This document shows, piece after piece, positions 1-14,528 of a DNA stretch of 14,528 nt (position 1 is its first letter; each line of letters starts with the position of its first letter). Source of the DNA: a virus; the UHGV virus genome UHGV-0197628. One strand, given 5' to 3'. A program made the translations under genes and the position numbers. The notes under the pieces were generated by a model. The model made no database searches. It was not told the DNA's origin and saw only the letters and a list, made by a program, of their open reading frames with translations.

Positions 1-1
1 G

Positions 2-946
2 GGTATCACCACGCTTCAGCCGCGCATTAAAAACGGTTCAAAAGTGGAGGTGCTGATTGGTGATGAGCTGGTGATCACCGGCTGGGTGGAGGCTACGCCC
101 GTTCGTTACGATGCCCGGTCGGTCAGCACCGGTATTGCCGGACGCAGTCTAACCGCTGACCTGATTGATTGTGCAGCCGAACCGACACAGTTTAACGGAC
201 GATCACTGGTACAGATTGCGCAGGCGCTTGCTGCGCCCTTCGGCATTGAGGTGGTGAACAGCGGTGCGCCGTCGGGTGTTATTCCTGATGTCCAGCCTGA
301 TCACGGTGAAACGGTGATCGAGGTGATTAACAAAATACTCGGTCAGCAGCAGGCGCTGGCTTATGACGACCCGCACGGCAGGCTGGTGATTGGCGGTATT
401 GGCTCAACGCGGGCACATACCGCGCTGGTACTCGGGGAAAACATCCTTTCCTGCGATACGGAGAAGAGTATCCGGGAGCGGTTTTCTGTTTACCAGGTGG
501 CGGGGCAGCGTGCCGGAAACGACGATGATTTCGGTGAGGCCACCACCACCGCGCTGCGGGCCCGCACAGAGGACGCATTTATTGCCCGTTACCGTCCGAT
601 GTATATCAGGCAGACAGGGCAGGCCACGGGGGCAGGCTGTATTGCGCGTGCTGACTTTGAAGCCCGGCAACGGGCGGCGCGGACGGATGAAACCATCTAT
701 GTGGTGCAGGGCTGGCGACAGGGTAACGGTACGCTGTGGCAGCCCAACCAGCGGGTGATTGTCTTTGATCCGGTCTGTGGTTTCGACAATACCGAACTGC
801 TTGTATCGGAAGTCACGTTTACTCAGGGCCAGAACGGTACCCTGACGGAAATCCGTGTCGGCCCGCCTGATGCTTATCTGCCTGAACCCGAAGATCCCGG
901 CGCGCGGAAAAAGAAAAAAGCCAGAGTACAGGAGGACCCGTTCTGA
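2..946 (+). CDS. Phage baseplate/tail protein, Mu gp44 (P) / late-control-D-like; 5' end lies outside the window
   Basis: Reading frame is open from nt 2 (no in-frame stop before the first Met at 44) to the TGA at 944-946, so the gene starts upstream of the window. Its stop overlaps the next start (TGATG at 944-948), indicating translational coupling. It sits first in a co-oriented gp44-gp45-gp46-gp47-gp48-like series. Family assignment rests on gene order and size, not a search. Confidence 0.55.
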   Translation, partial: GITTLQPRIKNGSKVEVLIGDELVITGWVEATPVRYDARSVSTGIAGRSLTADLIDCAAEPTQFNGRSLVQIAQALAAPFGIEVVNSGAPSGVIPDVQPDHGETVIEVINKILGQQQALAYDDPHGRLVIGGIGSTRAHTALVLGENILSCDTEKSIRERFSVYQVAGQRAGNDDDFGEATTTALRARTEDAFIARYRPMYIRQTGQATGAGCIARADFEARQRAARTDETIYVVQGWRQGNGTLWQPNQRVIVFDPVCGFDNTELLVSEVTFTQGQNGTLTEIRVGPPDAYLPEPEDPGARKKKKARVQEDPF

Positions 947-1494
947 TGAGGGCGATTGAAACCATACAGCGACAACTCCTCGGGCTGATTGGGCGGGCCG
1001 TGGTGAAAAGCATCAGTGCCGCCACGAAATGTCAGACCGTGGATGTGTCCCTGATTGCCGGTGAACCCAAAGCCGGGGTTGAACATCTTGAACCTTACGG
1101 TTTTACCGCAAGGGCAAACAGCGGTGCGGAAGCGGTGGTGTTGTTTCCGGATGGTGACCGTTCTCATGCGGTGGTTGTTACGGTGTCGGACCGGCGTTAC
1201 CGCCTGAAAGGGCTGCAGACGGGTGAGGTGGCTGTCTATGACGATCAGGGGCAGTCCGTGACGCTGACCCGGGAGGGGATCGTGGTGGACGGTGCAGGTA
1301 AAACGATCACGTTTCGCAATGCACCTGAAGCACGTTTTGAAATGGATCTGGAAGTGACCGGACAGGTGAAAGACCTGTGCGACTCCGGCGGCACCACCAT
1401 GTCAGCGATGCGGCTTGCCTATAACGGGCATCGTCACAGAGAGAACGGTCAGGGCAGTAACACCGATAAACCTGATAAAGCGATGGAGGCATGA
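946..1494 (+). CDS. Baseplate spike/assembly protein V-like (Mu gp45-like)
   Basis: 182-aa ORF, ATG at 946 overlapping the upstream stop, and its own stop overlapping the next start (ATGATG at 1491-1496). Size and position match the gpV/gp45 slot of Mu-like tail modules. Confidence 0.65.
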   Translation: MRAIETIQRQLLGLIGRAVVKSISAATKCQTVDVSLIAGEPKAGVEHLEPYGFTARANSGAEAVVLFPDGDRSHAVVVTVSDRRYRLKGLQTGEVAVYDDQGQSVTLTREGIVVDGAGKTITFRNAPEARFEMDLEVTGQVKDLCDSGGTTMSAMRLAYNGHRHRENGQGSNTDKPDKAMEA

Positions 1495-1919
1495 TGGAAC
1501 TGTGGCTGACGGTGAACGGTAAACGCACCTGCGCCAGCGCACCGCTGGATCCGCTGACCCGCGCTGTGGTGATTTCCCTGTTCACCTGGCGGCGGGCGGA
1601 GCCTGATGACTATGCCGACGTCCCAATGGGATGGTGGGGGGATACCTGGCCTGCGGTACAGAATGACCGTTACGGCTCCCGACTGTGGCTGCTTCAGCGC
1701 AGCAAACTGACCAATCAGCTGGTGCAGACGGTAAGGGGATATATCCGCGAATGCCTGCAATGGATGATTGATGACGGCGTGGTGTCCCGTATTGATCTGG
1801 ATATCCGCCGCACCGGGATTAATGAGCTGGGTAACAGTATCATCCTCTGGCGTCGTGATGGACCAGTAGTGATTTCTTTTGATGATCTGTGGAGTGCGAT
1901 AACGCATGGCGGACAGTGA
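1491..1919 (+). CDS. Mu gp46-like baseplate protein (gp25/W-like)
   Basis: 142-aa ORF with 4-nt start/stop overlap to the upstream gene and 14-nt overlap with the downstream gene. Size matches Mu gp46 (~140 aa) and it is in the conserved position. Confidence 0.6.
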   Translation: MMELWLTVNGKRTCASAPLDPLTRAVVISLFTWRRAEPDDYADVPMGWWGDTWPAVQNDRYGSRLWLLQRSKLTNQLVQTVRGYIRECLQWMIDDGVVSRIDLDIRRTGINELGNSIILWRRDGPVVISFDDLWSAITHGGQ

Positions 1920-2964
1920 ATTTCAGCGCCCGACGCTGGCAGAAAATATCAGTATGCTCCGTAACGATTTATTCGCCAGGCTGGACGTCAGCGACACGCT
2001 CCGGCGCATGGATGAAGACGTGCGGGCAAAGGTGTATGCGGCGGCGCTGCATACGGTCTACGGTTACATCGATTATCTGGCAATGAATATGCTGCCTGAC
2101 CTGTGCGATGAGTCCTGGCTGGCGCGACATGCTGCGATGAAACGGTGTCCGCGCAAGGGAGCCACGGTTGCCAGCGGGTATATGCGCTGGGAAGGTGTCA
2201 GCGATGGCCTGAAGGTGACTGCCGGGAGTGTTATTCAGCGCAATGACTTGGTGCAGTACACGACAACTGACGATGCAATCAGCTCCGGTGGTGTCCTGCG
2301 TGTGCCGATCGCCTGCTCAAGTGCAGGTGCGGTTGGTAACGCTGACGACGGTACGGCATTAATCCTGGTCACGCCGGTGAATGGTCTGCCGTCTTCCGGC
2401 GTGGCTGACACCCTGACAGGCGGATTTGATACTGAAGAGCTGGAAACGTGGCGCGCCCGCGTCATTGAGCGGTATTACTGGACGCCGCAGGGCGGGGCTG
2501 ACGGGGACTATGTCGTCTGGGCTAAAGAAGTACCTGGCATTACCCGCGCATGGACATACCGACACTGGATGGGAACGGGGACTGTCGGTGTGATGATTGC
2601 CAGCAGTGACCTGATTAATCCCATTCCGGAAGAATCAACGGAAACGGCAGCAAGACAACATATCGGGCCACTGGCCCCGGTGGCAGGCTCTGATTTGTAT
2701 GTATTCAGGCCGGTGGCACATACGGTGGATTTTCATATCCGCGTGACGCCGGACACACCAGAAATACGGGCTGCCATCACCGCCGAGTTGCGTTCGTTCC
2801 TGCTGCGTGATGGTTATCCGCAGGGAGAACTGAAGGTATCGCGTATCAGTGAGGCGATTTCCGGTGCGAACGGGGAATACAGCCATCAATTGCTTGCACC
2901 GGCGGACAATATCTCCATTGCAAAAAATGAACTGGCGGTTCTGGGGACGATTTCATGGACGTGA
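1906..2964 (+). CDS. Baseplate J-like protein (Mu gp47 / P2 gpJ family)
   Basis: 352-aa ORF in the conserved position between the gp46-like and gp48-like genes, overlapping the downstream gene by 10 nt. Size is typical of baseplate J proteins. Confidence 0.7.
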
Positions 2965-3539
2965 CAAACGATGATTACATCCGTCTGTTGTCGGCACTGC
3001 TGCCGCCCGGTCCGGCGTGGTCAGCCAGCGATCCGGCGATTGCCGGTGCGGCACCGTCATTAACTCGTGTTCATCAGCGTGCGGATGCCCTGATGCGGGA
3101 GCTGGATCCGCGCACCACCACCGAACTGATAAATCGCTGGGAGCGTCTGTGCGGCCTGCCGGATGAATGTATTCCCGCAGGGACACAGACCCTTCGCCAG
3201 CGTCAGCAACGGCTGGATGCGAAGGTTAACCTGGCGGGTGGCATCAACGAGGATTTTTATCTTGCACAGCTTGCTGCCCTGGGCAGACCAGATGCCGCCA
3301 TCACGCGATACGACAAAAGCACGTTCACCTGCTCATCGGCCTGTACTGACGCTGTGAATGCGCCGGAATGGCGGTATTACTGGCAGGTCAACATGCCAGC
3401 CGCCACCAACACCACCTGGATGACATGTGGCGATCCCTGTGATTCCGCACTGCGTATCTGGGGGGACACCGTTGTCGAGTGCGTGCTTAACAAACTCTGC
3501 CCGTCGCATACCTACGTAATTTTTAAATATCCGGAGTAA
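2955..3539 (+). CDS. Mu gp48-like tail protein (P2 gpI-like / YmfQ-like)
   Basis: 194-aa ORF immediately upstream of the tail-fibre gene, with a 3-nt gap to it. Size and position match Mu gp48 and e14 YmfQ. Confidence 0.6.
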
Positions 3540-3542
3540 TCC

Positions 3543-4208
3543 ATGCATCGTATAGACACGAAAACCGCGCAGAAGGATAAGTTCGGCGCGGGTAAGAACG
3601 GTTTTACCCGTGGTAACCCCCAGACCGGCACGCCTGCCACCGATCTGGATGATGACTACTTTGATATGTTGCAGGAAGAACTCTGCAGCGTGGTGGAGGC
3701 ATCCGGTGCCAGTCTGGAGAAGGCGCGGCACGACCAGCTGCTTACCGCGCTTCGTGCGCTGCTGTTAAGCCGCAAGAATCCGTTTGGCGATATCAAATCG
3801 GATGGCACGGTGAAAACGGCTCTCGAAAACCTTGGTTTGGGAGAAGCGGCAAAACGGGATGTGGGTAACGGGCAAAACCAAATTCCTGATATGTCAGCGT
3901 GGGAGTGTGGGGGAGATACAACGACGGGATGGAGGCGAAGCCCGGATGGTTATATTGAACAATGGGGGCTAACTGGGGCCACAACAAATGAAGTTTTGAT
4001 TAATTTTCCTATCCCATTTCCGACAGCCGTCATTTCTATTAATGAACATGACCAGGCTCCTGTGGCAGGGAAAATGTCAGTATGGCAATTCTATAAATTG
4101 ACTAACTCAAATGTCATAGCAGAGAACCTGGGATCTCTTGATAAAGGAAATCCATCCTTCAATGTTCCAACTGTCGCTGGTTGCCGCTGGTTTGCTACAG
4201 GAAGATAA
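3543..4208 (+). CDS. Side tail fibre protein (Stf / Mu S-like); constant N-terminus (to ~nt 3833) fused to the currently expressed variable C-terminus inside the invertible segment
   Basis: 221-aa ORF. The N-terminus ([26 protein letters not shown]...) is, from memory, characteristic of e14 StfP-type fibre proteins. The 26-bp inversion crossover site lies in the ALENLGLGE codons (nt 3820-3845). Sequence downstream of the site is visibly more AT-rich and unrelated to the constant part. Confidence 0.8.
3820..3845. repeat. Left inversion crossover site (gix/pix/hix-like, 26 bp, central TT)
   Basis: ctctcgaaaaccTTggtttgggagaa resembles the Hin/Gin crossover-site pattern (..GAAAACC NN GGTTT..). 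Its reverse complement matches the right site at 5659-5684 over 15 contiguous bp (cttctcccaaaccaa), with partial similarity beyond. Confidence 0.75.
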
Positions 4209-4209
4209 A

Positions 4210-4650
4210 ATGAGTAAATATCTTTACGATGCTAAAACTAATATGTTTTACCCATTTACTCTGGAAAGTCAGTATAAGGAGTCTGGGTTATGGCCTCATA
4301 ATGGAGTTGAAGTTGATGAGGATATATTTATTAAGTACCTGTCCCCACCTCCAGGGAAGGTGAGAGTTGCGGGTGATGATGGCTATCCTGCATGGGATGA
4401 CGTACCGCCGCTAACTCATGAAGAACAACTGTCAGAAGCGGAACGAAAAAAACAGGCACTCATAAATCGAGTTAATGAATATATTAACAGTAAGCAGTGG
4501 CCAGGAAAGGCTGCTATTGGTCGTCTGAAAGGTGAGGAACTGGCGCAATATAATTTATGGCTGGATTATCTGGACGCACTGGAACTGGTCGATACTTCCA
4601 GTGCTCCAGATATTGAATGGCCTACGCCTCCGGCAGTTCAGGCCAGATGA
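4210..4650 (+). CDS. Tail fibre assembly chaperone (Tfa / Mu U-like)
   Basis: ATG at 4210 lies 1 nt after the stf stop (TAA 4206-4208), with an AGGAAG Shine-Dalgarno-like sequence about 8 nt upstream. C-terminus ...GRLKGEELAQYNLWLDYLDALELVDTSSAPDIEWPTPP is the conserved Tfa tail. The longer ORF from 4138 starts inside stf and was not used. Confidence 0.75.
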   Translation: MSKYLYDAKTNMFYPFTLESQYKESGLWPHNGVEVDEDIFIKYLSPPPGKVRVAGDDGYPAWDDVPPLTHEEQLSEAERKKQALINRVNEYINSKQWPGKAAIGRLKGEELAQYNLWLDYLDALELVDTSSAPDIEWPTPPAVQAR

Positions 4651-5215
4651 CATCCGGCGCGGTGCTGGTATCTGTTGCCGCCACCGCGTCAATGTAATCC
4701 AGCACAGCGTTAAGCCGGGTTGTTTCTGCCTGCGTCAGTTTCCGCCCGGCCTGTAATTTCAGCTGAATCAGACTAATGGAAGCCATTGCTGCATCAATCA
4801 GTGACTGGCGCTGTGCTTCTGCCGCTTCTACTGCGGCACCGTGTTGTGCCTCAGTATCTGTCACCCATTTCTCACCATCCCATTTATCATATGGCGTTAA
4901 CGGTGAAAGCGTGACATAACCGTTTTTGATGGCACCGATATAATCCACTGTAACAGCAGCACCATTTTCGATTGAGTAAACAGTCTCATTGCGATGGTCT
5001 TCTTCATGGCACCATCCCTTACCTGTAAATACTGCCACTTTTCCCGGAATGTTTTCGCCCGGGTCAATACCAGTGGAACAGGCGGGCATACTTACGCCAG
5101 TATTAATATATTCATCAGACCAGCCCGTATACTCAGATGTTTCAGCATCATAATAAAAACAACGCATATCGCCCGGCACTGTAGCCAGCCCATTTTCATC
5201 AAAAACAGGTTTCAT
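4622..5215 (-). CDS. Tail fibre assembly chaperone, alternative copy (Tfa' / Mu U'-like)
   Basis: 197-aa minus-strand ORF ending in the same conserved Tfa C-terminal motif (...LDYIDAVAATDTSTAPDVIWPELPEA). It is convergent with tfa, with the 3' ends overlapping by 29 nt, and sits immediately downstream (minus-strand sense) of the alternative fibre cassette. Confidence 0.8.
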   Translation of the reverse strand: MKPVFDENGLATVPGDMRCFYYDAETSEYTGWSDEYINTGVSMPACSTGIDPGENIPGKVAVFTGKGWCHEEDHRNETVYSIENGAAVTVDYIGAIKNGYVTLSPLTPYDKWDGEKWVTDTEAQHGAAVEAAEAQRQSLIDAAMASISLIQLKLQAGRKLTQAETTRLNAVLDYIDAVAATDTSTAPDVIWPELPEA

Positions 5216-5682
5216 TATTTAGCCCTCACCAGAAAGTTAAATGCAATATTTCGCGGTCTGACAGCAACAAAATTCACACCATCACCCACAGAGCTACTGG
5301 TGAAATTAAATCGTGAAAATCCTGGCTGATTTCCGGCGATGCCATCATGAAAGTTAATTGCGTGTCCCGCACCTTCGCCTATATTCCCGGCAAACTGAGA
5401 AAAGTTTGTAGCTTCCTGCCAGCTTAATAATTCGCGACCACCATCTGCACCTCGCCCGTCATCCCAGATACGAATGAAATCACCGCGGGCTTCAGGTAAT
5501 ACCAGCGAAGGAAACACTTTCGCCAGCACAGGGTAATTAGAGGCAGAAAATTTCGCCCCGTTGAACTTCAAAAACACCATACCGGACCAGCTGTCGATTA
5601 CAGTATTTGGCATTGCCGCGGAGGGCCAGAAGAACGGAACGCCAATAGCTGGAGCACCTTCTCCCAAACCAACATTTATGAA
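5215..5682 (-). CDS. Alternative tail-fibre variable C-terminal cassette (S'-like), silent in this orientation
   Basis: Minus-strand frame is open from the right crossover site and encodes ...NVGLGEGAPAIG..., i.e. the same L-G-L-G-E junction residues as the expressed fibre. It has no credible start or RBS of its own; the track's Met at 5712 lies in the pin upstream region. Its stop abuts the tfa' start. Confidence 0.7.
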   Translation of the reverse strand, partial: FINVGLGEGAPAIGVPFFWPSAAMPNTVIDSWSGMVFLKFNGAKFSASNYPVLAKVFPSLVLPEARGDFIRIWDDGRGADGGRELLSWQEATNFSQFAGNIGEGAGHAINFHDGIAGNQPGFSRFNFTSSSVGDGVNFVAVRPRNIAFNFLVRAK

Positions 5683-5684: not shown

Positions 5685-5738
5685 TGCAGAAATAACGAGC
5701 AAATGGCATCATTCCTGCTTTTGCTAGGGAGATCTACC

Positions 5739-6293
5739 ATGCTTATTGGCTATGTACGTGTGTCAACAAATGACCAGAACACAGATCTACAACGTAATGC
5801 GCTGAACTGTGCAGGATGCGAGCTGATTTTTGAAGACAAGATAAGCGGTACAAAGTCCGAAAGGCCGGGACTGAAAAAACTGCTCAGGACATTATCGGCA
5901 GGTGACACTCTGGTTGTCTGGAAGCTGGATCGGCTGGGGCGCAGTATGCGGCATCTGGTCATTCTGGTTGAGGAGTTGCGCGAACGTGGCGTTAATTTTC
6001 GCAGCCTGACGGATGCTATTGATACCAGTACCCCAATGGGGCGCTTTTTCTTTCATGTGATGGGGGCCCTGGCTGAAATGGAACGAGAACTGATTGTTGA
6101 ACGAACAAAAGCTGGACTGGAAGCTGCTCGCGCACAGGGACGAATTGGTGGACGTCGTCCCAAACTTACACAAGAACAATGGGCGCAGGCCGGGCGATTA
6201 ATTGCATCAGGCGTTCCTCGCCAGAAGGTGGCGATCATCTATGATGTTGGTATATCGACACTGTATAAGAAGTTTCCGGTCGGAGATAAATGA
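5739..6293 (+). CDS. pin: Serine DNA invertase, Pin/Gin/Hin/Cin family
   Basis: 184-aa product from ATG 5739 (MLIGYVRVSTNDQNTDLQRNALN...). It has the N-terminal catalytic-serine motif (YVRVSTNDQ) and a C-terminal helix-turn-helix region (...GRRPKLT..QKVAIIYDVGISTLYKKF), and is near-identical in character to E. coli PinE as I recall it. The 12 extra N-terminal codons in the ORF track (from 5703) were rejected. Confidence 0.9.
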   Translation: MLIGYVRVSTNDQNTDLQRNALNCAGCELIFEDKISGTKSERPGLKKLLRTLSAGDTLVVWKLDRLGRSMRHLVILVEELRERGVNFRSLTDAIDTSTPMGRFFFHVMGALAEMERELIVERTKAGLEAARAQGRIGGRRPKLTQEQWAQAGRLIASGVPRQKVAIIYDVGISTLYKKFPVGDK

Positions 6294-6334
6294 AACCGTA
6301 GCACGTCGTATGCAAGAAGATCGTGCTGCGGTTT
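6293..6334. terminator. Bidirectional terminator-like hairpin between convergent pin and the GIY-YIG gene (repeat copy A)
   Basis: 13-bp stem (aaaccgtagcacg / cgtgctgcggttt, one G-U pair) with a 16-nt loop. It starts at the last base of the pin stop codon and ends 20 nt beyond the stop of the minus-strand gene. Flanks are moderately T-rich on both strands. Confidence 0.55.
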
Positions 6335-6353
6335 ATGCTTATCACTTAAAGAC

Positions 6354-7223
<870 letters not shown>

Positions 7224-7312
7224 CTAATCCTTTGAATTTACATAGTAAAAAAAGATACTTTTCCTCATAGTGTGAGCTAATTTTATGTTTCGTTTGATGA
7301 TCGGACCGGTCT

Positions 7313-7352
7313 CAAAAACCGCAGGCACGTTGTATGCAAGAACGTGCTGTGG
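7313..7352 (-). terminator. Rho-independent terminator-like hairpin on the minus strand (repeat copy B), downstream of the FRG-motif gene
   Basis: Stem ccgcaggcacg / cgtgctgtgg (about 10 bp with one bulge) and loop ttgtatgcaagaa. On the minus strand it is followed by a UUUUUG run (plus-strand aaaaa at 7314-7318). Stem and loop are closely related to hairpin A (shared gtatgcaagaa loop). Confidence 0.5.
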
Positions 7353-7658
7353 CTGGCTGGTGAACTTCCAATAGTGCGAATATTGAATTATTTCCAGCTG
7401 TTATCGATTTTACGTATTTTTTGCATGAGAGGATTTCCACCACCTCCCACCGACCATCTATGGCTGTACGGCCCTATCTCTAGGGCTGCTATGTGCTAAA
7501 AGCAGACATTGATAACATTGAGATATGTTAATTTATAGGTAGCGGGTCAAGGCCACTGAAGATTCCAGTTTTTGACCCTGAGCCTGAAACCGTCCCCGAT
7601 GAGCAGTTCCACCTGAAGACTGCACAGTCTTAGTTTTCTTTGCCATTAATTTATCCAT

Positions 7659-8993
7659 TTATGATATCGATATATACTTTTTTGCAATTTCCGCTGCCGT
7701 TTTCTCCATGCTGGGATATACAGTGCTTTCGGAGATATTAAGCTGGGCCAGCTCTTTCAGAATTTTATTTTTGTTTGCTATCTCCACTCTGTTAAGAGGA
7801 AAATCAGCATCTGTTTCCGGTAAAATAGGATCAAGTCCGAACAGAAGAAATGCGCCTGCCTGAGACTGTATGCGTTCATTATTTATTTTAGCTTTAAGGA
7901 AAACAACTTTTTTTAAGTCATCAGAGATTATTTTGTTTCTGAAATATGATTTTTCATTCTGTATAAGGTCTGCAAGTTTATCAGTGAGTTCAGATAGCTC
8001 TACAGTATCTTTTCTGACATCAATGGAAGACAATTTTTCCAGCTCTTCGTAAGATAAAACTGATAAGTTTGCTATGCAGCTTACTGTATCTGAATCAAAA
8101 TATTTAATTTTCTTTCTGTTTGTTGAGAACGAAATCACCTGCCCATTTTCATTATGGTTCGAACTGCAAGCAAAATATAATGCTATCAGTGGGTTAGATG
8201 TGATATCCAGGAGTCTCGTAGGTAAGCCATAATGCTGCATGCGGACAAGTTTATCAATCGTAAATTTATCCTCCTTAAATTCATTTGGTCTTGCACTGAG
8301 TATCTCACGTACTAAGTCAGATTCTGAAGCAAGATGCCTGTATGTCCCGTTTTCATTCTTTCTGTAAAGAGAGGGGACAAGCTCATATGAGCTTTTAGAG
8401 TGTCCACGATAAAAGGTAACGAGGCCATCCGGACTGTTTTTTTTAATAAAGGCAAGATAATCCATGACATTCTCAACCACCTGATATGTTTGTTTTTTTA
8501 ATTTGATTGTACCTTTCAGACGGTTGTTTTTCTTGTTTAAACTAAGTCCTTTCAGAACAATATTTAAATCCTTATCTTTTACTGCCCAGTGTGTACGACT
8601 TAACCCGAAAGTTCCTAGTTCTAGGATTTCTTTATATAATGCTGTTTGGGGATTTGTTATTTCTCCAAAATCATGGTTAATCTTGAAGGAAAATAAAATG
8701 TCGTCACCATCTTTACGTAAATTTCTTATTTTCCCAAGCCTGATTCTGATGTACCTGTTTTTATCATTTTCAGTATCTTTCATATAAGTTTCGGTCATGA
8801 ACAACACAGGTAGCATGGCGAGTAATTTTAAGCTATCGGGTCTTACAGGTATTAATTTACTGTAAATATCGCTTGGGGTGCCTTCCAGCATGCGGGACAT
8901 CGAGAAGCTTTCCTCGCCTTCTTTAAGCCCAGGATTCATACACGGCCAGCGGTCAAAAACGTCCGGTTCTCCGGCCATGATTAAGTTAAACAT
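7659..8993 (-). CDS. FRG-motif protein (Abi-like), uncharacterised N-terminal ~170 aa plus central FRG-type domain (candidate defence gene)
   Basis: 444-aa product from ATG 8991-8993, with AGGAG 6 nt upstream on the minus strand; the track's start is the adjacent GTG. Contains F-Y-R-G-H followed by ...RMQHYGLPTRLLDITSNPLIALYFAC, which I recognise as the FRG-domain signature. The gene is AT-rich. Confidence 0.7.
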   Translation of the reverse strand: MFNLIMAGEPDVFDRWPCMNPGLKEGEESFSMSRMLEGTPSDIYSKLIPVRPDSLKLLAMLPVLFMTETYMKDTENDKNRYIRIRLGKIRNLRKDGDDILFSFKINHDFGEITNPQTALYKEILELGTFGLSRTHWAVKDKDLNIVLKGLSLNKKNNRLKGTIKLKKQTYQVVENVMDYLAFIKKNSPDGLVTFYRGHSKSSYELVPSLYRKNENGTYRHLASESDLVREILSARPNEFKEDKFTIDKLVRMQHYGLPTRLLDITSNPLIALYFACSSNHNENGQVISFSTNRKKIKYFDSDTVSCIANLSVLSYEELEKLSSIDVRKDTVELSELTDKLADLIQNEKSYFRNKIISDDLKKVVFLKAKINNERIQSQAGAFLLFGLDPILPETDADFPLNRVEIANKNKILKELAQLNISESTVYPSMEKTAAEIAKKYISIS

Positions 8994-9505
8994 CACAATC
9001 TCCTGAATTTACTCACTAAAGTCAGTGTGTTTTTATTATGTTGCATCATTGTGAATGAGGATGGCATGAGTTGTCCATGCTTGTTTGTCTTTCATAATTC
9101 ACAAAGTACATCAGCTTCTAATGTGTTTACGGTACGACCATGTGGGCGATGTCTTTCCATTCCTGAAAACTTCCTACTCAACCATGATGTATAAGCTGTA
9201 GTATGAAGTTTCTTGCCATCCAGTTAAGTAAATGTCTGCTCCTCGCTCACAACAGACATTCACTACAGTTGTGGCAGAAAGGTATGCATACTGGGTGGGG
9301 AAAGTGTGAAAGAAAGGAAGAATACTGCGCCGTTTGTCGTCGCGTTTATCTTCATTGGCTATGCAAGTCGTAATACAAGGTGGGACAAAACTGAGACACA
9401 TAAGGCCTCACAATGGCTTGCAAGGCTTTACATGTTTTGATGTGGTGGGACGTGTGAGCGCAGTGTTGATGGGGTAATGCTTTGAATTAGAAGCGGATTC
9501 TTATA

Positions 9506-9551
9506 ATTCGTAATGCGAAGGTCGTAGGTTCGACTCCTATTATCGGCACCA
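9506..9551 (+). tRNA. Partial tRNA-Thr(CGU) gene, 3' 46 nt only (anticodon loop to CCA); att-site direct-repeat remnant, not a functional tRNA
   Basis: attcgtaatgcgaaggtcgtaggttcgactcctattatcggcacca matches the 3' portion of enterobacterial tRNA-Thr(CGU) (thrW) as I recall it, including anticodon CGT, T-arm GGTTCGACTCC and the CCA end. The 30 nt upstream do not encode the 5' acceptor/D arm, so the tRNA is truncated. Confidence 0.75.
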
Positions 9552-9663
9552 TCTCAACTTCCTCAAACGTCCGTATTAGTCCTTAAATCTTCTGATTTAT
9601 AAGGTTTTTTCTTCTTTTAAGTCCATGGTAGTCCGTAACCATCCAGTAGAATCCGGTACTGAA

Positions 9664-9714
9664 TGTGTATAGGATTGTGTATATGTTCCTGTTCGGTCTG
9701 GATTCCTATACACA
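9664..9714 (+). promoter_or_regulatory. Perfect 11-bp inverted repeat (tgtgtatagga ...29 bp... tcctatacaca) spanning the integrase translation start
   Basis: The arms at 9664-9674 and 9704-9714 are exact reverse complements. The right arm ends at the A of the preferred int ATG (9714) and the left arm begins inside the alternative upstream ATG (9663). A partial third copy (ttgtgtatatg) lies at 9675-9685. Confidence 0.4.
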
Positions 9715-10901
9715 TGCCTTTAAACGATATGCAGATTCGCCGCGCTAAACCTGAAGCTAAAGCCTATACACTTGGAGATGGGCAAGGGCTGTCTTTGCTT
9801 ATAGAACCTAATGGAAGCAAGAGCTGGCGGTTCCGCTATCGTTTTGCCGGTAAACCAAAAATGATCTCGCTTGGTGTTTATCCAACAATAACACTTGCCG
9901 ATGCGCGTTCCCGTCGTGACGATGCCCGAAAACTGGTCGCGGAAGGAAAAAATCCGAGCGAGGTTAGAAAAGAGCAGAAAATTGCTTTGCAAACGGAGTC
10001 CGAGAGCGCGTTTGAAAAGATAGCCACAGAGTGGCACCAAATGAAGTCTGCTAAATGGTCGGAAGGATATGCCTCAGACATCATGGAAGCGTTTCAGAAC
10101 GATATTTTTCCTTACGTGGGTACAAGACCAATAGGCGAAATCAAACCGCTAGAACTGCTTAACGTGCTACGTAAAATTGAAAGGCGCGGTGCATTAGAAA
10201 AAATGCGCAAAGTTCGGCAGCGATGTTCAGAGGTTTTTCGCTACGCCATTGCTACAGGAAGGGCTGAGTTTAACCCAGCAGCGGATCTTTCTAGTGCCCT
10301 CGATGTACACCAATCAAATCACTTCCCGTTCCTAAAAGCTGATGAGATACCCGATTTTCTGCGCGCTTTGGATGGTTACACCGGAAGTCGGCTTGTCCTG
10401 ATTGCTACGAAATTACTGATGATTACTGGTGTAAGAACCATCGAATTACGTGCGGCATTATGGTCAGAATTTGATCTAGATAACGCTATTTGGGAAATTC
10501 CAGCAGAAAGGATGAAAATGCGTAGGGCACACCTTGTGCCACTATCTACTCAAGCGTTAGATTTACTCAGCGAAATCAAAATAATGACAGGGAACTATAG
10601 TTATGTTTTTCCGGGACGGAATGATCCGAACAAGCCGATGAGTGAAGCAAGTGTCAATCAGGTAATCAAACGCATTGGTTATAAAAGTAGGGTCACTGGG
10701 CATGGTTTTAGGCACATGATGTCAACTATCTTACATGAGCATGGGTTTGATTCCCGGTGGATAGAGTTACAGCTGGCTCATGTTGATAAAAATACCATTC
10801 GAGGTACTTATAATCATGCGGTCTATCGTCACGAGAGAGCTACTATGATGCAGTATTTTGCTGATTTGCTATTAGGAAAGTCTCATGACAATAATCAATG
10901 A
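9714..10901 (+). CDS. int: Tyrosine site-specific integrase, P4 / CP4-57 family
   Basis: 395-aa product (MPLNDMQIRRAKPEAKAYTLGDGQGLSLLIEPNGSKSWRFRYRF...). It has the N-terminal arm-binding region typical of P4-type integrases and C-terminal catalytic residues in context (...HLVPLS..., HGFRHMMSTILHEHG, LAHVD...RGTYNHAVY). It sits directly downstream of a tRNA 3' fragment. Confidence 0.9.
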   Translation: MPLNDMQIRRAKPEAKAYTLGDGQGLSLLIEPNGSKSWRFRYRFAGKPKMISLGVYPTITLADARSRRDDARKLVAEGKNPSEVRKEQKIALQTESESAFEKIATEWHQMKSAKWSEGYASDIMEAFQNDIFPYVGTRPIGEIKPLELLNVLRKIERRGALEKMRKVRQRCSEVFRYAIATGRAEFNPAADLSSALDVHQSNHFPFLKADEIPDFLRALDGYTGSRLVLIATKLLMITGVRTIELRAALWSEFDLDNAIWEIPAERMKMRRAHLVPLSTQALDLLSEIKIMTGNYSYVFPGRNDPNKPMSEASVNQVIKRIGYKSRVTGHGFRHMMSTILHEHGFDSRWIELQLAHVDKNTIRGTYNHAVYRHERATMMQYFADLLLGKSHDNNQ

Positions 10902-11811
10902 GGTGAATAAATTTGTATCTGTCAACAAGCAAGATTTTGATGCTTGTATTGATGTTGTTGAGCATTTCTTTTGTATCAAATCGCTCTGTGCAGAGGTACG
11001 ATTTCATCATTTGAAGTTTGATGGTAATGGACGACCTATGGTGAAGGCGTTAGCTGAAAAACTTTACGAGTATATAATCGAGTACTGTTTTTCGATGCAA
11101 GATAGATGTGAACCTCTCTCATCTCAACAATGGCTTGCCTTAGCGAAACAGGCTCGTTCATTGTTTAGGCATCCCAAAGTCACAGACGATTCGCCTGATA
11201 AAACAGGCGAGGCTGGCGAAACTTTATTATTTTTCCTTTTGGAAGCTATAATTGGTGCTCCACAGTTAGTGGCAAAAATGGAGCTTAAAACCAACTCGAA
11301 TGATGAGGTAAAAGGTTCTGACGGCATACATATAAAATGGAATGAAACGGATAAAGTTGTTGATTTCTACTTTGGTGAGTCAAAGCTCTATCAGAAAATA
11401 TCCTCTGCAATGGACTCAGCACTTAAAAGTATCGATGATTTCCATACTAATGAAATGTATAAGCATGAGTTTGGTATGGCAACAAAACATTATAAATACG
11501 CTAAGGATGAAGTCAGGGACGCTGTAAGGAAACTATTCGTTTCTGGAGAACCCGGTTCTGATGTTCGTGTTAATCATGCGTGTTTAATTGGTTTTGACTG
11601 GAATGGTTTTGACAAGTTAGATTATGGATCTTCGATTTCTATAAATGAGCAGTTTATTACAGAGTTGACTAACACACTTCCGCAATGGATTGGTCTGTTA
11701 GATGAAAAATTCAGTAGGTTTAACCGTAAATATTTAAGGTTTGATGTTTTCTTTATTCCATTTCCTTCGGTAGTCGATTTTAGAAATGAATTTAACAAGG
11801 CATTAAATTAA
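10885..11811 (+). CDS. PD-(D/E)xK-like nuclease candidate; HamA-like (Hachiman effector) by architecture
   Basis: 308-aa ORF with AGGAAAG 5 nt upstream of its ATG, overlapping the int 3' end by 17 nt. Candidate catalytic triad spacing: E120 (FLLEAIIG), D146 (GSDGIHI), E165-x-K167 (FYFGESKLY). It is followed 2 nt later by a large SF2 helicase gene. Strongly AT-rich. DUF1837 membership could not be verified without an HMM search. Confidence 0.6.
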   Translation: MTIINEVNKFVSVNKQDFDACIDVVEHFFCIKSLCAEVRFHHLKFDGNGRPMVKALAEKLYEYIIEYCFSMQDRCEPLSSQQWLALAKQARSLFRHPKVTDDSPDKTGEAGETLLFFLLEAIIGAPQLVAKMELKTNSNDEVKGSDGIHIKWNETDKVVDFYFGESKLYQKISSAMDSALKSIDDFHTNEMYKHEFGMATKHYKYAKDEVRDAVRKLFVSGEPGSDVRVNHACLIGFDWNGFDKLDYGSSISINEQFITELTNTLPQWIGLLDEKFSRFNRKYLRFDVFFIPFPSVVDFRNEFNKALN

Positions 11812-11813
11812 CT

Positions 11814-14345
11814 ATGTTAAAGATAAATGAGTTGTACTCTAAACTTGTCAAGGTTAGCATTGATAACATATTTGGAGTGGTAGGGGAGTTAAAGGTAAGT
11901 ATTAGTGATATTTATAAGTTATTATCATATGGCTCCATACTGTCTTTGTCAGAGAATGAATCTGACATAAAAAAAGCCTACGACATTGTCAGTAGAGTTT
12001 TAGAATTAGATACTCAGTACGATTCGAACATAATTGCAGCTTGTGATCTTATTTTATCTAGAATCGGAAATTTTCCAGGTAGAGGGTTGCTAAGAGATAA
12101 ATATAATAATGGAGAGTCTCCTTCGCTGAATTTATCACTTTCGCTAGAACGTATTGGGCGTGAAACAGAAAATACATACAATGATATAACTTTGACAAAC
12201 TTCCAATGCAAGTTGCTTAATTCGCTAAGAAAGAATAATTATCTCAGTGTGTCCGCCCCAACGTCTGCTGGAAAATCTTTTGTTCTTTCATTAGCTGTTA
12301 TTGATAAAATTCAAGCTTATGAAAAAGAATGCATTGTTTATGTAGTACCAACTCGTGCGTTAATTAGTGAGGTGTCAAATAAATTTCGTTATGAGTGTAA
12401 ACAAGCAGGGTTAAATAAAGTTATTATAAGAACTGCACCAGAAATAATAGAGAGTAATAGTATAGAACAAGGCTTAATTTATGTGCTCACACAAGAAAGG
12501 CTTGTTAGTTTACTCTCGAATTCTTATGGGAATAGCAATTTCCATATAGATACATTACTCATAGATGAAGCCCATGAAATCCAAAAAGGAAAAAGAGGTA
12601 TAATTCTTCAAAATGCTGTTGAATTAGCTCTTGAAAAACATCCTCATATGCATGTTATGTTTTCCAGCCCTTTGATAAGTAATCCTGATTATTTTTTTTC
12701 AATTTTTAGATGGCGCAAGGATGGTAAGTCATTTATTGAAACTATATCACCTGTTACACAGAATGTTTTACTTGTTAATCAAGTGAAAAATAACACTCAA
12801 GCTATTAACGTAAAGTTAAACAATGAAGATAAACCCATTGATCTTGGGAATTATAATTTAGATTTTGTGTTGCGGGGCAATCGTAAGGTTCAGAAAGCAA
12901 AAATTGCTGAGTTTATATCTCGCTCCGGTGGTGCTGTAATTGTATTTGAAGATACACCGTCTAATGCAGAAGGTGTTGCTATCAATATAGCGGAAAGTAT
13001 TGGTGATACATCTTTACAAGATGATTACGAAGAGTTTGTGTCTTCGATTGAAGAAGAAATGCATGAGCAATATACTTTGATCACATGCTTACGGTCAGGA
13101 GTGGCTTTTCATTATGGGAATATGCCATCTATAATAAGAAATGGGATTGAGTACTTCTTTAAACGTGGCGATATTAAGTTTATAGTTTGTACTAGTACAT
13201 TACTTCAGGGTGTTAACTTACCTGCAAAGCATCTTATTTTAGAGAATCCACACAGTGGTGATGAACCAATGTCAAGGGCTGATTTCTTGAACCTTGCTGG
13301 TAGAGCTGGCCGTTTGAAATATGAGTTTCATGGCAATGTTTGGTGTGTGAGAAGTAATCTTTGGGATAACAAGTCCTTTGAAGGTGATACTCTCCAAACT
13401 ATAACTTCCGCGATGTCAAAAGTTATGGAAGATGGCGGTAGCATCATTTCAAATGCTATTGATAATGTATTTTCCCCAACTGATGACAAGGAATTGGCAG
13501 ACGTTGCATTCGCGCGTTTTTATCAAGAAGTGCAAAGAGATGGTTTTCAATTATCATACTTCTCTGAGTTAGAGGGGGAGGAGTCCAATGAAATGTTGGA
13601 ATATAATTATGATAAAGTTCGACGAATGAAGATAACCATCCCTGAAGAACTGTTGAAATTGAACTCAGGCACGAGACCTGATTACATACAACGACTTTAT
13701 GAATTCTTCACCCAACAGGATGATTTAGATGATTACATTCTGCATAGCCCTTATCAACAAGGAGGGAAAGCAAGAGTAGACCGCGCCATCGAGATTATTA
13801 TTGATATATTCGCTTGGCCGGTTACATTGCAATATGCAAAGTTAATTAGTGTTATGGCTCATCATTGGATGACCTCTCACTCCCTTAAATCCATGATTAA
13901 CTATAAGATTAGAAGTTCTCATGAACTATCAGATATGATTAATCGTGGTGAATCAATTGGTAAAATAAGAAGAAAAACATCCTCTCTTATTAGGGATGTG
14001 CTAAATACACTTGAGAATCAAGTTAGGTATAATTTAGTTCGATATTTAAAAGTATATAGAGAAACTCTTGTCTATGTTCTTATTTCAAAAGGAGAAAAAG
14101 GTAAGGCTGAGAAGGTCGAGAATATTAGTGCCTATCTAGAGTTTGGTTCCTGTAATCCAACTGAATTAAGCCTTATGTCATTAGGCCTTTCTCGAAGTAC
14201 TGCTTTATTTTTAAAAAATAAATTTAATTTCCCGCGGGATTCCTCCCCTGAAGCGTTGATTGAATTTTTATTAACGAAAGATTTGAATTCTAAAAACACA
14301 CCAGAATTTAGAGTTAGAGAAATTAAAGATGTACTTGGAATTTAA
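11814..14345 (+). CDS. Superfamily-2 DEAH-box helicase with ~340-aa uncharacterised C-terminal region; HamB-like (Hachiman helicase) by architecture
   Basis: 843-aa ORF. Walker A is SAPTSAGKS (K154, nt ~12255-12278), motif II is LLIDEAHE (nt ~12561-12575), motif V-like is TSTLLQGVNLP and motif VI is LAGRAGRL (aa ~493-500). The start is 2 nt after the upstream stop. Strongly AT-rich. Confidence 0.7.
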   Translation: MLKINELYSKLVKVSIDNIFGVVGELKVSISDIYKLLSYGSILSLSENESDIKKAYDIVSRVLELDTQYDSNIIAACDLILSRIGNFPGRGLLRDKYNNGESPSLNLSLSLERIGRETENTYNDITLTNFQCKLLNSLRKNNYLSVSAPTSAGKSFVLSLAVIDKIQAYEKECIVYVVPTRALISEVSNKFRYECKQAGLNKVIIRTAPEIIESNSIEQGLIYVLTQERLVSLLSNSYGNSNFHIDTLLIDEAHEIQKGKRGIILQNAVELALEKHPHMHVMFSSPLISNPDYFFSIFRWRKDGKSFIETISPVTQNVLLVNQVKNNTQAINVKLNNEDKPIDLGNYNLDFVLRGNRKVQKAKIAEFISRSGGAVIVFEDTPSNAEGVAINIAESIGDTSLQDDYEEFVSSIEEEMHEQYTLITCLRSGVAFHYGNMPSIIRNGIEYFFKRGDIKFIVCTSTLLQGVNLPAKHLILENPHSGDEPMSRADFLNLAGRAGRLKYEFHGNVWCVRSNLWDNKSFEGDTLQTITSAMSKVMEDGGSIISNAIDNVFSPTDDKELADVAFARFYQEVQRDGFQLSYFSELEGEESNEMLEYNYDKVRRMKITIPEELLKLNSGTRPDYIQRLYEFFTQQDDLDDYILHSPYQQGGKARVDRAIEIIIDIFAWPVTLQYAKLISVMAHHWMTSHSLKSMINYKIRSSHELSDMINRGESIGKIRRKTSSLIRDVLNTLENQVRYNLVRYLKVYRETLVYVLISKGEKGKAEKVENISAYLEFGSCNPTELSLMSLGLSRSTALFLKNKFNFPRDSSPEALIEFLLTKDLNSKNTPEFRVREIKDVLGI

Positions 14346-14528
14346 TATTTTATCGCAATTATTTTGATGCCAATATAAATAATCATTCTCAATGGCGAAT
14401 TGCTAAAGGAAAGTTCATACGATGACCGCGCGCAATGCTCTCCCCGCCACGCCTGCCCGCTTTGTAGGGCAGTTTTCATGCAGGTGCATGAACCGGCTCA
14501 GGCCGCGCCGGTACTGGCGTGGTGGGGA

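Follow-up and report, generated by a model that had tools for sequence, protein, structure and literature searches.

A probable two-gene Hachiman system carried as cargo in the integrase–cos slot of a P4-like satellite at thrW

At one end of UHGV virus genome UHGV-0197628, a stretch of 14,528 nt referred to here as the window, two AT-rich genes lie directly behind a tyrosine integrase, which raises the question of whether they form a known immune system, a divergent relative of one, or something unrelated to defense. An earlier note on this DNA had proposed an integrase-linked nuclease and helicase operon, either of the Hachiman type or an undescribed relative. The gene layout is exactly as it described: hamA (10885..11811, forward strand, 308 aa) and hamB (11814..14345, forward strand, 843 aa) both begin with ATG in the ORF listing, are co-oriented and separated by 2 nt (a TAA-CT-ATG junction), and follow an integrase ORF spanning 9663-10901. 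Their GC contents of 36.5% and 34.7%, respectively, compare with 44% for the integrase and 57% for positions 1-4000 of the window. These are not chance ORFs, because both proteins matched curated family models over their full lengths, with E values from 1e-50 to 1e-279. We conclude that the locus very probably represents an intact two-gene Hachiman system, composed of a DUF1837-only HamA with an intact nuclease motif and its HamB, carried as cargo in the int–cos/psu slot of a P4-like satellite at thrW. The proposal of a Hachiman-type HamA/HamB system on a P4-like element was thereby borne out on every point tested.

Membership of the small protein in DUF1837 could not be verified by eye, and the earlier note had allowed for a different nuclease fold paired with a HamB-like helicase. 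Profile searches settled the membership: HamA matched Pfam PF08878 across profile positions 1-230 of 230 (E = 6.9e-50, 170.5 bits, cut-off 25), and among the 20 PADLOC HamA models that matched, HamA1 (PDLC00168) was the best, covering the full length from residue 3 (E = 8.1e-135; 447 bits vs 285 bits for HamA2). The predicted fold likewise superposes on solved HamA chains, as expected for a HamA/PD-(D/E)xK-like protein. Sequence comparison with solved structures was far less sensitive: phmmer with HamA alone as the query gave one weak match in the PDB, 9wh1_A (E = 0.0024), a profile of 43 HamA homologues did not reach the K-12 HamA chain, and ECOR31 HamA was reached by neither query and was bridged by structure comparison alone. 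Such distances would suit a divergent, undescribed nuclease–helicase system merely resembling Hachiman, or another nuclease fold joined to a HamB-like helicase. However, the whole-profile Pfam match, the breadth of the PADLOC matches, the name "HamA C-terminal domain-containing protein" already borne by homologues in NCBI and UniRef, and the superposition on solved chains make this reading extremely unlikely; the profile matches and the superposition already refute it. The pair is a canonical two-gene Hachiman, and the idea of an undescribed relative found no support.

We predict that the hamA product is an effector nuclease of the PD-(D/E)xK type. The residues singled out beforehand, E120, D146, and E165-S-K167, all occur at those positions, and D146, E165, and K167, along with E109, E112, and E120, are invariant in 43 of 43 homologues (54-92% identity). 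In the structural model, D146, E165, and K167 fall at the start of strand 147-153 and inside strand 158-169. Candidate catalytic residues are E109/E112/E120, D146, and E165-x-K167, and for the acidic position preceding D146, E109 or E112 of an invariant G108-E-A-G-E112 motif is as plausible as E120. In S. thermophilus HamA the mutated residues were G89/D90/E93, D127, and E147-x-K149 (PMC13064477); the G/E109/E112...D146...E165-x-K167 arrangement appears to parallel them, in a match based on spacing and made without alignment.

The hamB product is a Ski2/Hel308-like SF2 helicase by PADLOC, Pfam, and structure. It matched PADLOC HamB2 (PDLC00199, E = 1.3e-279, 5-840 of 841) and HamB1 (PDLC00186, E = 3.2e-278), with PADLOC HamB models aligning from residue 2, and contains the Pfam domains DEAD, Helicase_C, and ResIII. 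The complete SF2 motif set recognized earlier thus belongs to a full-length HamB: K154 (in AGKS), DEAH at 251-254, and AGRAGR at 495 sit where they had been placed, and Walker A, DEAH, and motif VI are invariant or nearly so in 40 homologues. The closest solved HamB by sequence was 9wh1_B (phmmer against the PDB, E = 1.4e-53, over residues 7-800), while Foldseek with the AF2 model (pLDDT 87.7) ranked 8vxa_A, the ECOR31 HamB-DNA structure, first (TMq 0.73), followed by Hel308, the Pol-theta helicase domain, and 8zue_B. From the secondary structure of the model, which gives approximate limits, we distinguish an N-terminal helical bundle (~1-120, all-helical over residues 4-119), RecA1 (~121-300) with the Walker A lysine and DEAH, a beta-rich insert (~304-348), RecA2 (~355-512) with motif VI, and a C-terminal all-helical region (~533-843). 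The model has no beta-strand past residue 512, and HamB would therefore lack the C-terminal OB-like barrel of ECOR31 HamB. The roughly 340 C-terminal residues in which no motif could be named by the earlier note most likely correspond to the winged-helix and helical C-terminal parts typical of HamB, minus the ECOR31 OB barrel.

In PADLOC, Hachiman type II calls for HamC as a third gene. The present locus has no such gene, nor any other third gene, and offers no room for one, as the hamA ATG overlaps the integrase stop by 17 nt and cos begins only ~90 nt past the hamB stop. In all contexts examined, namely the E. coli P4-like satellite and chromosomal loci of Serratia and Pseudomonas, hamA (308 aa) and hamB (~835-844 aa) are adjacent, with no third gene common to these loci. 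These observations bear on the reading that the pair belongs to an extended or alternative subtype, such as PADLOC type II, types I-B/C/D of Cui et al. (N-terminal Cap4 or peptidase), or trypsin-MBL, in which DUF1837 acts as a scaffold and another effector kills. Two results lean that way: HamB2 is the top HamB model, marginally above HamB1, and 9wh1_B comes from trypsin-MBL Hachiman. Yet HamA, at 308 aa, has no additional N-terminal domain, its HamA1 alignment begins at residue 3 and outscores HamA2, and D146 and E165-x-K167 are invariant, whereas 9wh1_A has H and non-E/K residues there. Having found neither an extra gene nor a HamA N-terminal effector domain, as in type II, I-B/C/D, trypsin-MBL, or Pez-Ham systems, we consider an extended subtype highly improbable. 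Classified by sequence, the pair falls under "type I" of PADLOC and under "type I-A" as defined by Cui et al. 2025 (PMC11914072).

Differences from the solved extended systems follow the same lines. HamA of K-12 HamAB/AbpAB (type I-B of Cui et al.; PDB 8ZUE) is 531 aa long with an N-terminal Cap4-type nuclease domain (PMC11914072), and its DUF1837 lacks the catalytic residues that are intact in the DUF1837-only HamA here. In trypsin-HamAB (PDB 9WH1/9WHK/9WHU; bioRxiv 10.1101/2025.09.03.673762), HamB measures 853 aa against 843 aa here, and the C-terminal DUF1837 of trypsin-HamA aligns with nearly the whole of our HamA; however, that protein carries an N-terminal trypsin domain, has H at the D146 position, and has lost ExK (9wh1_A alignment). 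Hachiman-trypsin-MBL works with an MBL effector, and neither a trypsin nor an MBL gene is present here.

At 9506..9551 (forward strand) are the 3' 46 nt of tRNA-Thr(CGU) (thrW), which match the tRNA-Thr of E. coli G47-1 exactly over its positions 31-76. Homology to the attP side of SfV covers 9381-9552 (97%) and homology to the P4-like element begins at 9506; on sequence grounds, this fragment is the att core common to the right end of an SfV-like prophage and the left end of a P4-like satellite. ARAGORN found no complete tRNA in the window because only these 46 nt of tRNA-Thr are there, and it located an intact tRNA-Thr(cgt) adjoining the same element in contig L005. The P4-family tyrosine integrase follows at 9714..10901 (forward strand), with a likely start at 9714 (395 aa) within the longest ORF from 9663; gene calls on identical contigs give 395 and 390 aa, the start being the equivalent of 9714. 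This protein contains Arm-DNA-bind_3 (4e-27), Phage_int_M (9e-35), and Phage_integrase (7e-27), shares 39% identity with P4 Int over 386 aa (E = 1e-99), and is encoded by DNA ~92% identical to the thrW-adjacent integrase of G47-1.

On the other side of hamAB, we located a cos-like site at 14435..14453 on the reverse strand, whose reverse complement, GGCGTGGCGGGGAGAGCAT, agrees at 16 of 19 positions with the first 19 nt of the P4 record, GGCGAGGCGGGGAAAGCAC, which we take to be the cohesive end. Window positions 14428-14523 align at 80% with the P4 psu-cos junction, and by this resemblance the cos-like site bounds the cargo slot on its far side. Adjoining cos at 14453..14472 (no strand assigned) is a GC-rich hairpin with a T-run (CTGCCCGCTTTGTAGGGCAG followed by TTTTCATGCA), conserved in P4 as GCCCGCTTTGCGGGGCGGTTTTAATGCA, which is a possible terminator closing the slot. 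The backbone past the cargo is 88% identical in G47-1, where it lies downstream of SIR2 cargo. Just past the window, on contig L004, which extends it, is psu (Psu Pfam E = 6e-47); sister elements in G47-1 and contig L008 both have psu plus an ogr/Delta-family gene, joined in G47-1 by an alpha-type primase. Full P4-like satellites include delta/sid and the alpha primase besides the integrase, cos, and psu. The order is thus tRNA-Thr att core, integrase, hamAB, cos site, and then psu, with only int, cargo, and cos of the satellite inside the window. The satellite sits in tandem behind the SfV-like prophage at the same tRNA-Thr site. Its far att site lies outside the window, and its near end is set by homology to tRNA-Thr, SfV, and E. 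coli G47-1; a search for direct repeats as island ends in 6200-14528 gave only short, chance-level repeats.

We also considered and rejected the reading of tail, attP, int, and hamAB as a single vegetative phage genome. The integrase, cos, and psu are of the P4 type, and the SfV integrase lies beyond its attP on the opposite strand. The expectation of a P4-like integrative element as carrier therefore holds, with hamAB occupying the int–psu/cos hotspot. The int–psu region of P4-like satellites is a described defense hotspot (Rousset et al. 2022, PMC9122126), and Hachiman is among the systems borne by P4 elements (bioRxiv 10.64898/2026.02.27.708500). As in that hotspot, cargo here lies between the integrase and cos/psu and its content varies by element (hamAB here, SIR2 in G47-1, gop-beta-cII in P4), with no substantive difference.

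The HamB fold resembles Hel308, Hjm, and the Pol-theta helicase domain, and HamB gives matches to NCBIfam Hel308 equivalogs, which might indicate a housekeeping or satellite-lifecycle pair for DNA repair or replication. Those matches, however, score about 90-114 bits, roughly tenfold under the curated cut-offs of 887-1200, and a Hel308-type repair helicase was rejected on these scores and on the position of the locus as mobile cargo. A SIR2-family gene fills the slot in a sister element, P4 itself lacks hamAB, and the pair is strongly AT-skewed relative to its surroundings. It is also nearly absent from E. coli: megablast against complete E. coli genomes found no near-identical hamAB and matched the integrase only, and sensitive blastn found a relative of the pair, 65% identical, in 1 of 5,426 genomes. 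We give a housekeeping role a negligible chance.

A genuine Hachiman locus could nevertheless be silent or decayed in its host. Directly upstream of hamA there is no clear sigma-70 promoter, the sole candidates overlapping the ATG. Across the AT-rich stretch we counted 25 promoter-like sites, not clearly higher than the shuffled expectation of 17.1 ± 4.1, and the scan is uninformative because AT-rich sequence yields many consensus-like sites. Against non-functional cargo, both ORFs are full length relative to the family models with all catalytic motifs intact, the exact HamA sequence of the window occurs on four independent metagenome contigs, and all four match the window at 99.7-100% identity across the int-hamAB DNA. 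The hamA ATG moreover lies behind a good Shine-Dalgarno and overlaps the integrase stop, as does the start of the SIR2 cargo in G47-1, an arrangement that would allow hamAB to be transcribed together with int, either from the integrase promoter or from one within int. Silent or decayed cargo thus seems very unlikely, and we retain an intact Hachiman system as our reading.

By homology to characterized systems (PMC12278908, PMC11914072, PMC13064477), HamA and HamB would form a 1:1 complex through the HamB N-terminal helical bundle, with the HamA nuclease held in check while HamB, as a Hel308-like 3'-to-5' DNA helicase, surveys DNA. Damaged DNA or free 3' single-stranded ends caused by phage would be bound by HamB with ATP hydrolysis, and helicase motion would activate the putative metal-dependent site of HamA (D146/E165/K167), leading to indiscriminate degradation of phage and host DNA and to death of the infected cell without phage release (abortive infection). 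As satellite cargo, the system would shield both the lysogen and its satellite against competing phages and spread horizontally with the satellite. How HamA is activated is disputed: Tuck et al. propose release from HamB (PMC12278908), whereas in the work of Cui et al. (PMC11914072) and Tian et al. (PMC13064477) HamA was active solely as part of the HamAB complex. Mechanistic detail from the solved systems may not transfer here, given a structure-based identity of 11-17% to solved E. coli HamA/HamB chains and a closest solved HamB by sequence (9wh1_B) that comes from a variant whose HamA is devoid of the D/ExK residues.

The closest known systems are the type I-A Hachiman of E. coli DEC14B (Cui et al. 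2025, PMC11914072) and HamAB of E. coli ECOR31 (Tuck et al. 2024, PMC12278908; PDB 8VX9/8VXA/8VXC/8VXY). Like them, the present locus is a two-gene hamA-hamB operon with a DUF1837-only HamA, an intact D...ExK (E150/K152 in DEC14B, E138/K140 in ECOR31, E165/K167 here), and a Ski2/Hel308-like SF2 HamB in which a bundle of N-terminal helices, predicted here from the model, precedes two RecA domains and a helical C-terminal region. Compared by structure, however, the proteins share only 11-16% identity with the ECOR31 chains, and HamB has 843 aa here vs 1,174 aa in ECOR31. The Walker A lysine of HamB is residue 154 rather than the K273 of DEC14B HamB, which leaves a far shorter N-terminal region. 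Relative to ECOR31, the helicase motif is DEAH rather than DEGH, and the HamB model has no C-terminal beta structure; Tian et al. confine the OB fold to the ECOR31-type (III-A) clade (PMC13064477).

The hamAB pair is already known in kind, a standard Hachiman in a known defense slot, and has little discovery value because PADLOC-type models annotate it automatically, the hotspot is published, and homologues are already named HamA. It does represent a widespread gammaproteobacterial Hachiman subclade, for which neither the PDB nor the Hachiman literature surveyed yielded a solved structure or a phage assay, and which could suit comparative work on HamB activation of HamA. We consider it unlikely, though conceivable, that this compact subclade (308-aa HamA, ~843-aa HamB, no OB barrel, a trypsin-MBL-like HamB with an intact HamA) differs from ECOR31, DEC14B, and K-12 in sensing or HamA licensing, and that the hamA/integrase overlap wires defense to the integrase transcription unit rather than to a promoter of its own. 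The locus itself illustrates cleanly how the P4 int–cos slot exchanges its cargo, with hamAB in one element and SIR2 in another alongside the same integrase and backbone.

The earlier note had read two adjacent plus-strand ORFs in the window as a Hachiman-type pair or an undescribed relative. Coordinates, lengths, spacing and AT-richness all held up in the ORF listing and base composition: hamA (10885-11811, +) encodes 308 aa, hamB (11814-14345, +) encodes 843 aa, the two are spaced 2 nt apart, and GC content is 36.5% and 34.7%, respectively, whereas the integrase gene before them has 44% and window positions 1-4000 have 57%. The first codon of the pair is coupled to the integrase gene of the satellite (ORF 9663-10901, +, start probably at 9714; Arm-DNA-bind_3, Phage_int_M and Phage_integrase domains), whose stop overlaps the hamA ATG by 17 nt. 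A scan upstream of hamA found no clear promoter; a silent or decayed copy is nonetheless unlikely, given that both ORFs are intact and widely conserved.

Profile searches identify the small protein as HamA. It matched the Pfam HamA family (PF08878, formerly DUF1837; E = 6.9e-50; score 170 bits, cut-off 25 bits) across profile positions 1-230 of 230, as well as 20 PADLOC HamA models, the best being HamA1 (PDLC00168, E = 8.1e-135, positions 6-311 of 312); these full-length matches settle the DUF1837 membership that had been left to a profile search. Residues E120, D146 and E165-S-K167 lie where they had been placed by eye; E120, D146, E165 and K167, along with G108, E109 and E112, are invariant in an alignment of 43 homologues (54-92% identical). 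The AlphaFold2 model (mean pLDDT 83.8, pTM 0.85) has a core of helix 109-123, strands 127-130, 147-153 and 158-169, helix 172-188 and a further strand at 227-238, with D146 at the start of the second strand and E165-x-K167 inside the third. This predicted layout is that expected for a PD-(D/E)xK nuclease, in agreement with the arrangement proposed from sequence. The predicted fold superposes on solved HamA chains, and Foldseek with the model returned the same top three. The family-model matches and fold comparison exclude the alternative of a different nuclease fold or an undescribed system.

The large protein, in turn, matched PADLOC HamB models along their whole length (PDLC00199, E = 1.3e-279; PDLC00186, E = 3.2e-278) and contains Pfam DEAD, Helicase_C and ResIII domains, matches by which we assign it to HamB. 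K154 of Walker A, the DEAH box at 251-254 and AGRAGR at 495 are positioned as previously described, and an alignment of 40 homologues shows the residues of Walker A, DEAH and motif VI unchanged or almost unchanged (A498 kept in at least 90%). The HamB model (pLDDT 87.7, pTM 0.86) fits best to ECOR31 HamB (8vxa_A; query-normalised TM 0.73, E = 2.8e-21), followed by Hel308/Hjm, the Pol-theta helicase domain and K-12 HamB. As the two RecA domains make up ~45% of the chain, a TM of 0.73 over 843 residues exceeds what they alone could give. Thus, the C-terminal ~340 residues, in which the earlier note could name no motif, are present as described but can now be read as the usual HamB/Ski2-type arrangement of Tuck et al. 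(PMC12278908), in which a degenerate winged helix is joined to a helical "ratchet" region at the C-terminus. Beta structure is absent from the model beyond residue 512, so this HamB would be without the OB-like barrel of ECOR31 HamB, a feature reported only for the ECOR31-type clade (Tian et al., PMC13064477). At the other end, residues 4-119 are predicted to form an all-helical bundle corresponding in position to the HamA-binding NAH domain (PMC12278908). For this compact HamB subclade, the PDB search returned no solved structure and the literature search no phage assay.

We then considered subtype. The window HamA has no extra N-terminal domain and retains its catalytic residues, and the locus leaves no space for a third gene, since the hamA start lies within the end of the integrase gene and the cos-like site of the satellite follows the hamB stop after only ~90 nt. 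The examined relatives in E. coli, Serratia and Pseudomonas loci share no common neighbour gene besides hamAB. The lack of an extra domain, the intact residues and the lack of a third gene indicate the plain two-gene Hachiman form, and we classify the pair on these features as type I-A of Cui et al. (PMC11914072), which accounts for 86% of HamA sequences in that study. An extended Hachiman subtype was ruled out by the domain content, the intact motif and the absence of space for another gene. By sequence, the closest solved HamB is 9wh1_B (E = 1.4e-53, residues 7-800), which comes from the trypsin-MBL Hachiman variant. In contrast to the window protein, which keeps all three residues, the HamA of that variant has histidine at the D146 position and non-acidic and non-lysine residues at the E165 and K167 positions, a loss that underlines the place of the window HamA in the nuclease-active class.

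Family membership, intact motifs and operon structure are established for the window allele, and homology suggests its complex formation, trigger and outcome. HamA and HamB form a 1:1 complex through the HamB N-terminal bundle, and HamB is a DNA helicase of 3'-to-5' polarity that resembles Hel308 in function and recognises damaged DNA or 3' ends; its ATP-driven ratcheting alters the interface with HamA, upon which the D-ExK nuclease degrades DNA indiscriminately, yielding DNA-free cells and abortive infection (Tuck et al., PMC12278908). DNA-damaging drugs can trigger Hachiman even without phage (PMC12278908). By analogy, the window proteins would assemble 1:1 via the same bundle, HamB would sense 3' ends or damaged DNA and remodel the HamA interface by ATP-driven ratcheting, and the HamA nuclease would degrade DNA indiscriminately, leading to abortive infection. 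A type I-A system protects against seven dsDNA phages, and its E150A/K152A or Walker A mutation abolishes both defence and DNase activity (Cui et al., PMC11914072); the corresponding HamA residues are essential in a Streptococcus system, where HamA is active only when complexed with HamB (Tian et al., PMC13064477). Published accounts differ on whether HamA must be released to act or acts while bound to HamB.

Several features identify the carrier as a P4-like satellite, as had been suspected. Its integrase shares 39% identity with P4 Int (E = 1e-99), window positions 14428-14523 align at 80% with the P4 psu-cos junction, including a 19-nt cos-like site (14435-14453) that matches the opening 19 nt of the P4 record at 16 positions, and a 99.8% identical contig that reaches beyond the window continues with psu (Pfam E = 6e-47). 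A sister satellite in E. coli G47-1 (NZ_CP195164.1, 6209-10104), compared over window positions 9714-14345, has a 908-aa SIR2-family gene where the window has hamAB, with the integrase 92% and the cos-side backbone 88% identical; further along the sister element are psu, an ogr/Delta-family gene and a gene for an alpha-type primase. The SIR2-family gene start overlaps the integrase stop by 4 nt, and the recurrence of this overlap in both elements may reflect co-transcription of cargo and integrase. This cargo position is the int–psu hotspot for defence genes already published for P4 (PMC9122126), and Hachiman is already listed among P4-borne systems (2026 preprint, bioRxiv 10.64898/2026.02.27.708500). 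Family models, motifs and location bear out the Hachiman-type interpretation, and both the hamAB system and the place it occupies are of kinds described before; residual novelty is limited to the compact HamB subclade and the coupling of the hamA start to a satellite integrase.

Homologues (several hundred HamA, several thousand HamB) come mostly from Gammaproteobacteria and match in length (~308 aa and ~835-850 aa); NCBI/UniRef names many of the HamA homologues "HamA C-terminal domain-containing protein" or "DUF1837 domain-containing protein". The exact pair was absent from the 5,426 complete E. coli genomes searched, only one of which held a blastn-level relative (65% identity); four metagenome contigs do encode an identical HamA. 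An E. coli Hachiman relative (HamA 82%, HamB 72% identity) occupies the same slot in a thrW P4-like element. A housekeeping repair helicase operon was also considered and ruled out by this rarity, by the mobile, swappable location and by NCBIfam, where HamB drew only Hel308-type helicase matches, all far sub-threshold.

Two further loci show the pair in other settings. One of the four metagenome contigs (L005, 1-1990; Logan SRR32251461) has a 99.7% identical int-hamAB-psu element adjoining an intact tRNA-Thr(cgt); what precedes it is a PEMT-family gene and split EAL-domain genes, not proBA or a prophage, which suggests a recent transfer of the satellite between distinct genomic backgrounds or hosts. 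In Serratia proteamaculans (GCA_946226125.1; locus L010, 5038-9464), a 63%-identical hamAB immediately follows proBA near thrW, and neither an integrase nor psu was called around the pair; it may be the remnant of a decayed satellite whose defence cargo was left behind.

Upstream, window positions 1-3893 are 97% identical to the Mu-type baseplate/tail genes of phage SfV and are followed by an invertible tail-fibre segment and a Gin/Cin-like serine invertase (5703-6293, +; Pfam Resolvase E = 1e-51). The 1,841-bp segment (3832-5672), which adjoins the invertase and is flanked by the 15-bp inverted repeat TTGGTTTGGGAGAAG, encodes, on opposite strands, the variable C-termini of tail fibres and two genes for tail-fibre assembly. 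Metagenome contig L003 has this segment at 100% identity in the reverse orientation, which is direct evidence that a host-range switch of the G-segment type is active in the SfV-like prophage. The stretch from the invertase to the att site of the prophage contains two single-gene defence candidates, PD-T4-3 (GIY-YIG; 6354-7178, −; PADLOC E = 2.8e-140) and PDC-S15 (FRG domain; 7659-8996, −; PADLOC E = 1.2e-98, Pfam FRG E = 2e-22), at the position where SfV instead carries gtrA/gtrB/gtrV for O-antigen modification. The att-proximal moron slot of the SfV family thus seems to swap serotype-conversion genes for anti-phage genes. A 75-aa ORF between PDC-S15 and the att region (9174-9401, −) had no Pfam or PADLOC match and may be spurious or a small prophage gene. 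Positions 9381-9552 are 97% identical to SfV attP-side sequence, 9506-9551 are identical to the last 46 nt of tRNA-Thr (thrW), and from 9506 on the window is 92% identical to the element after thrW in E. coli G47-1. As the SfV side ends and the P4-like side starts at the same tRNA-Thr core, the prophage and the satellite are integrated in tandem at a single tRNA site. In all, the window contains three or four defence systems on two stacked mobile elements, within a stretch of ~8 kb.
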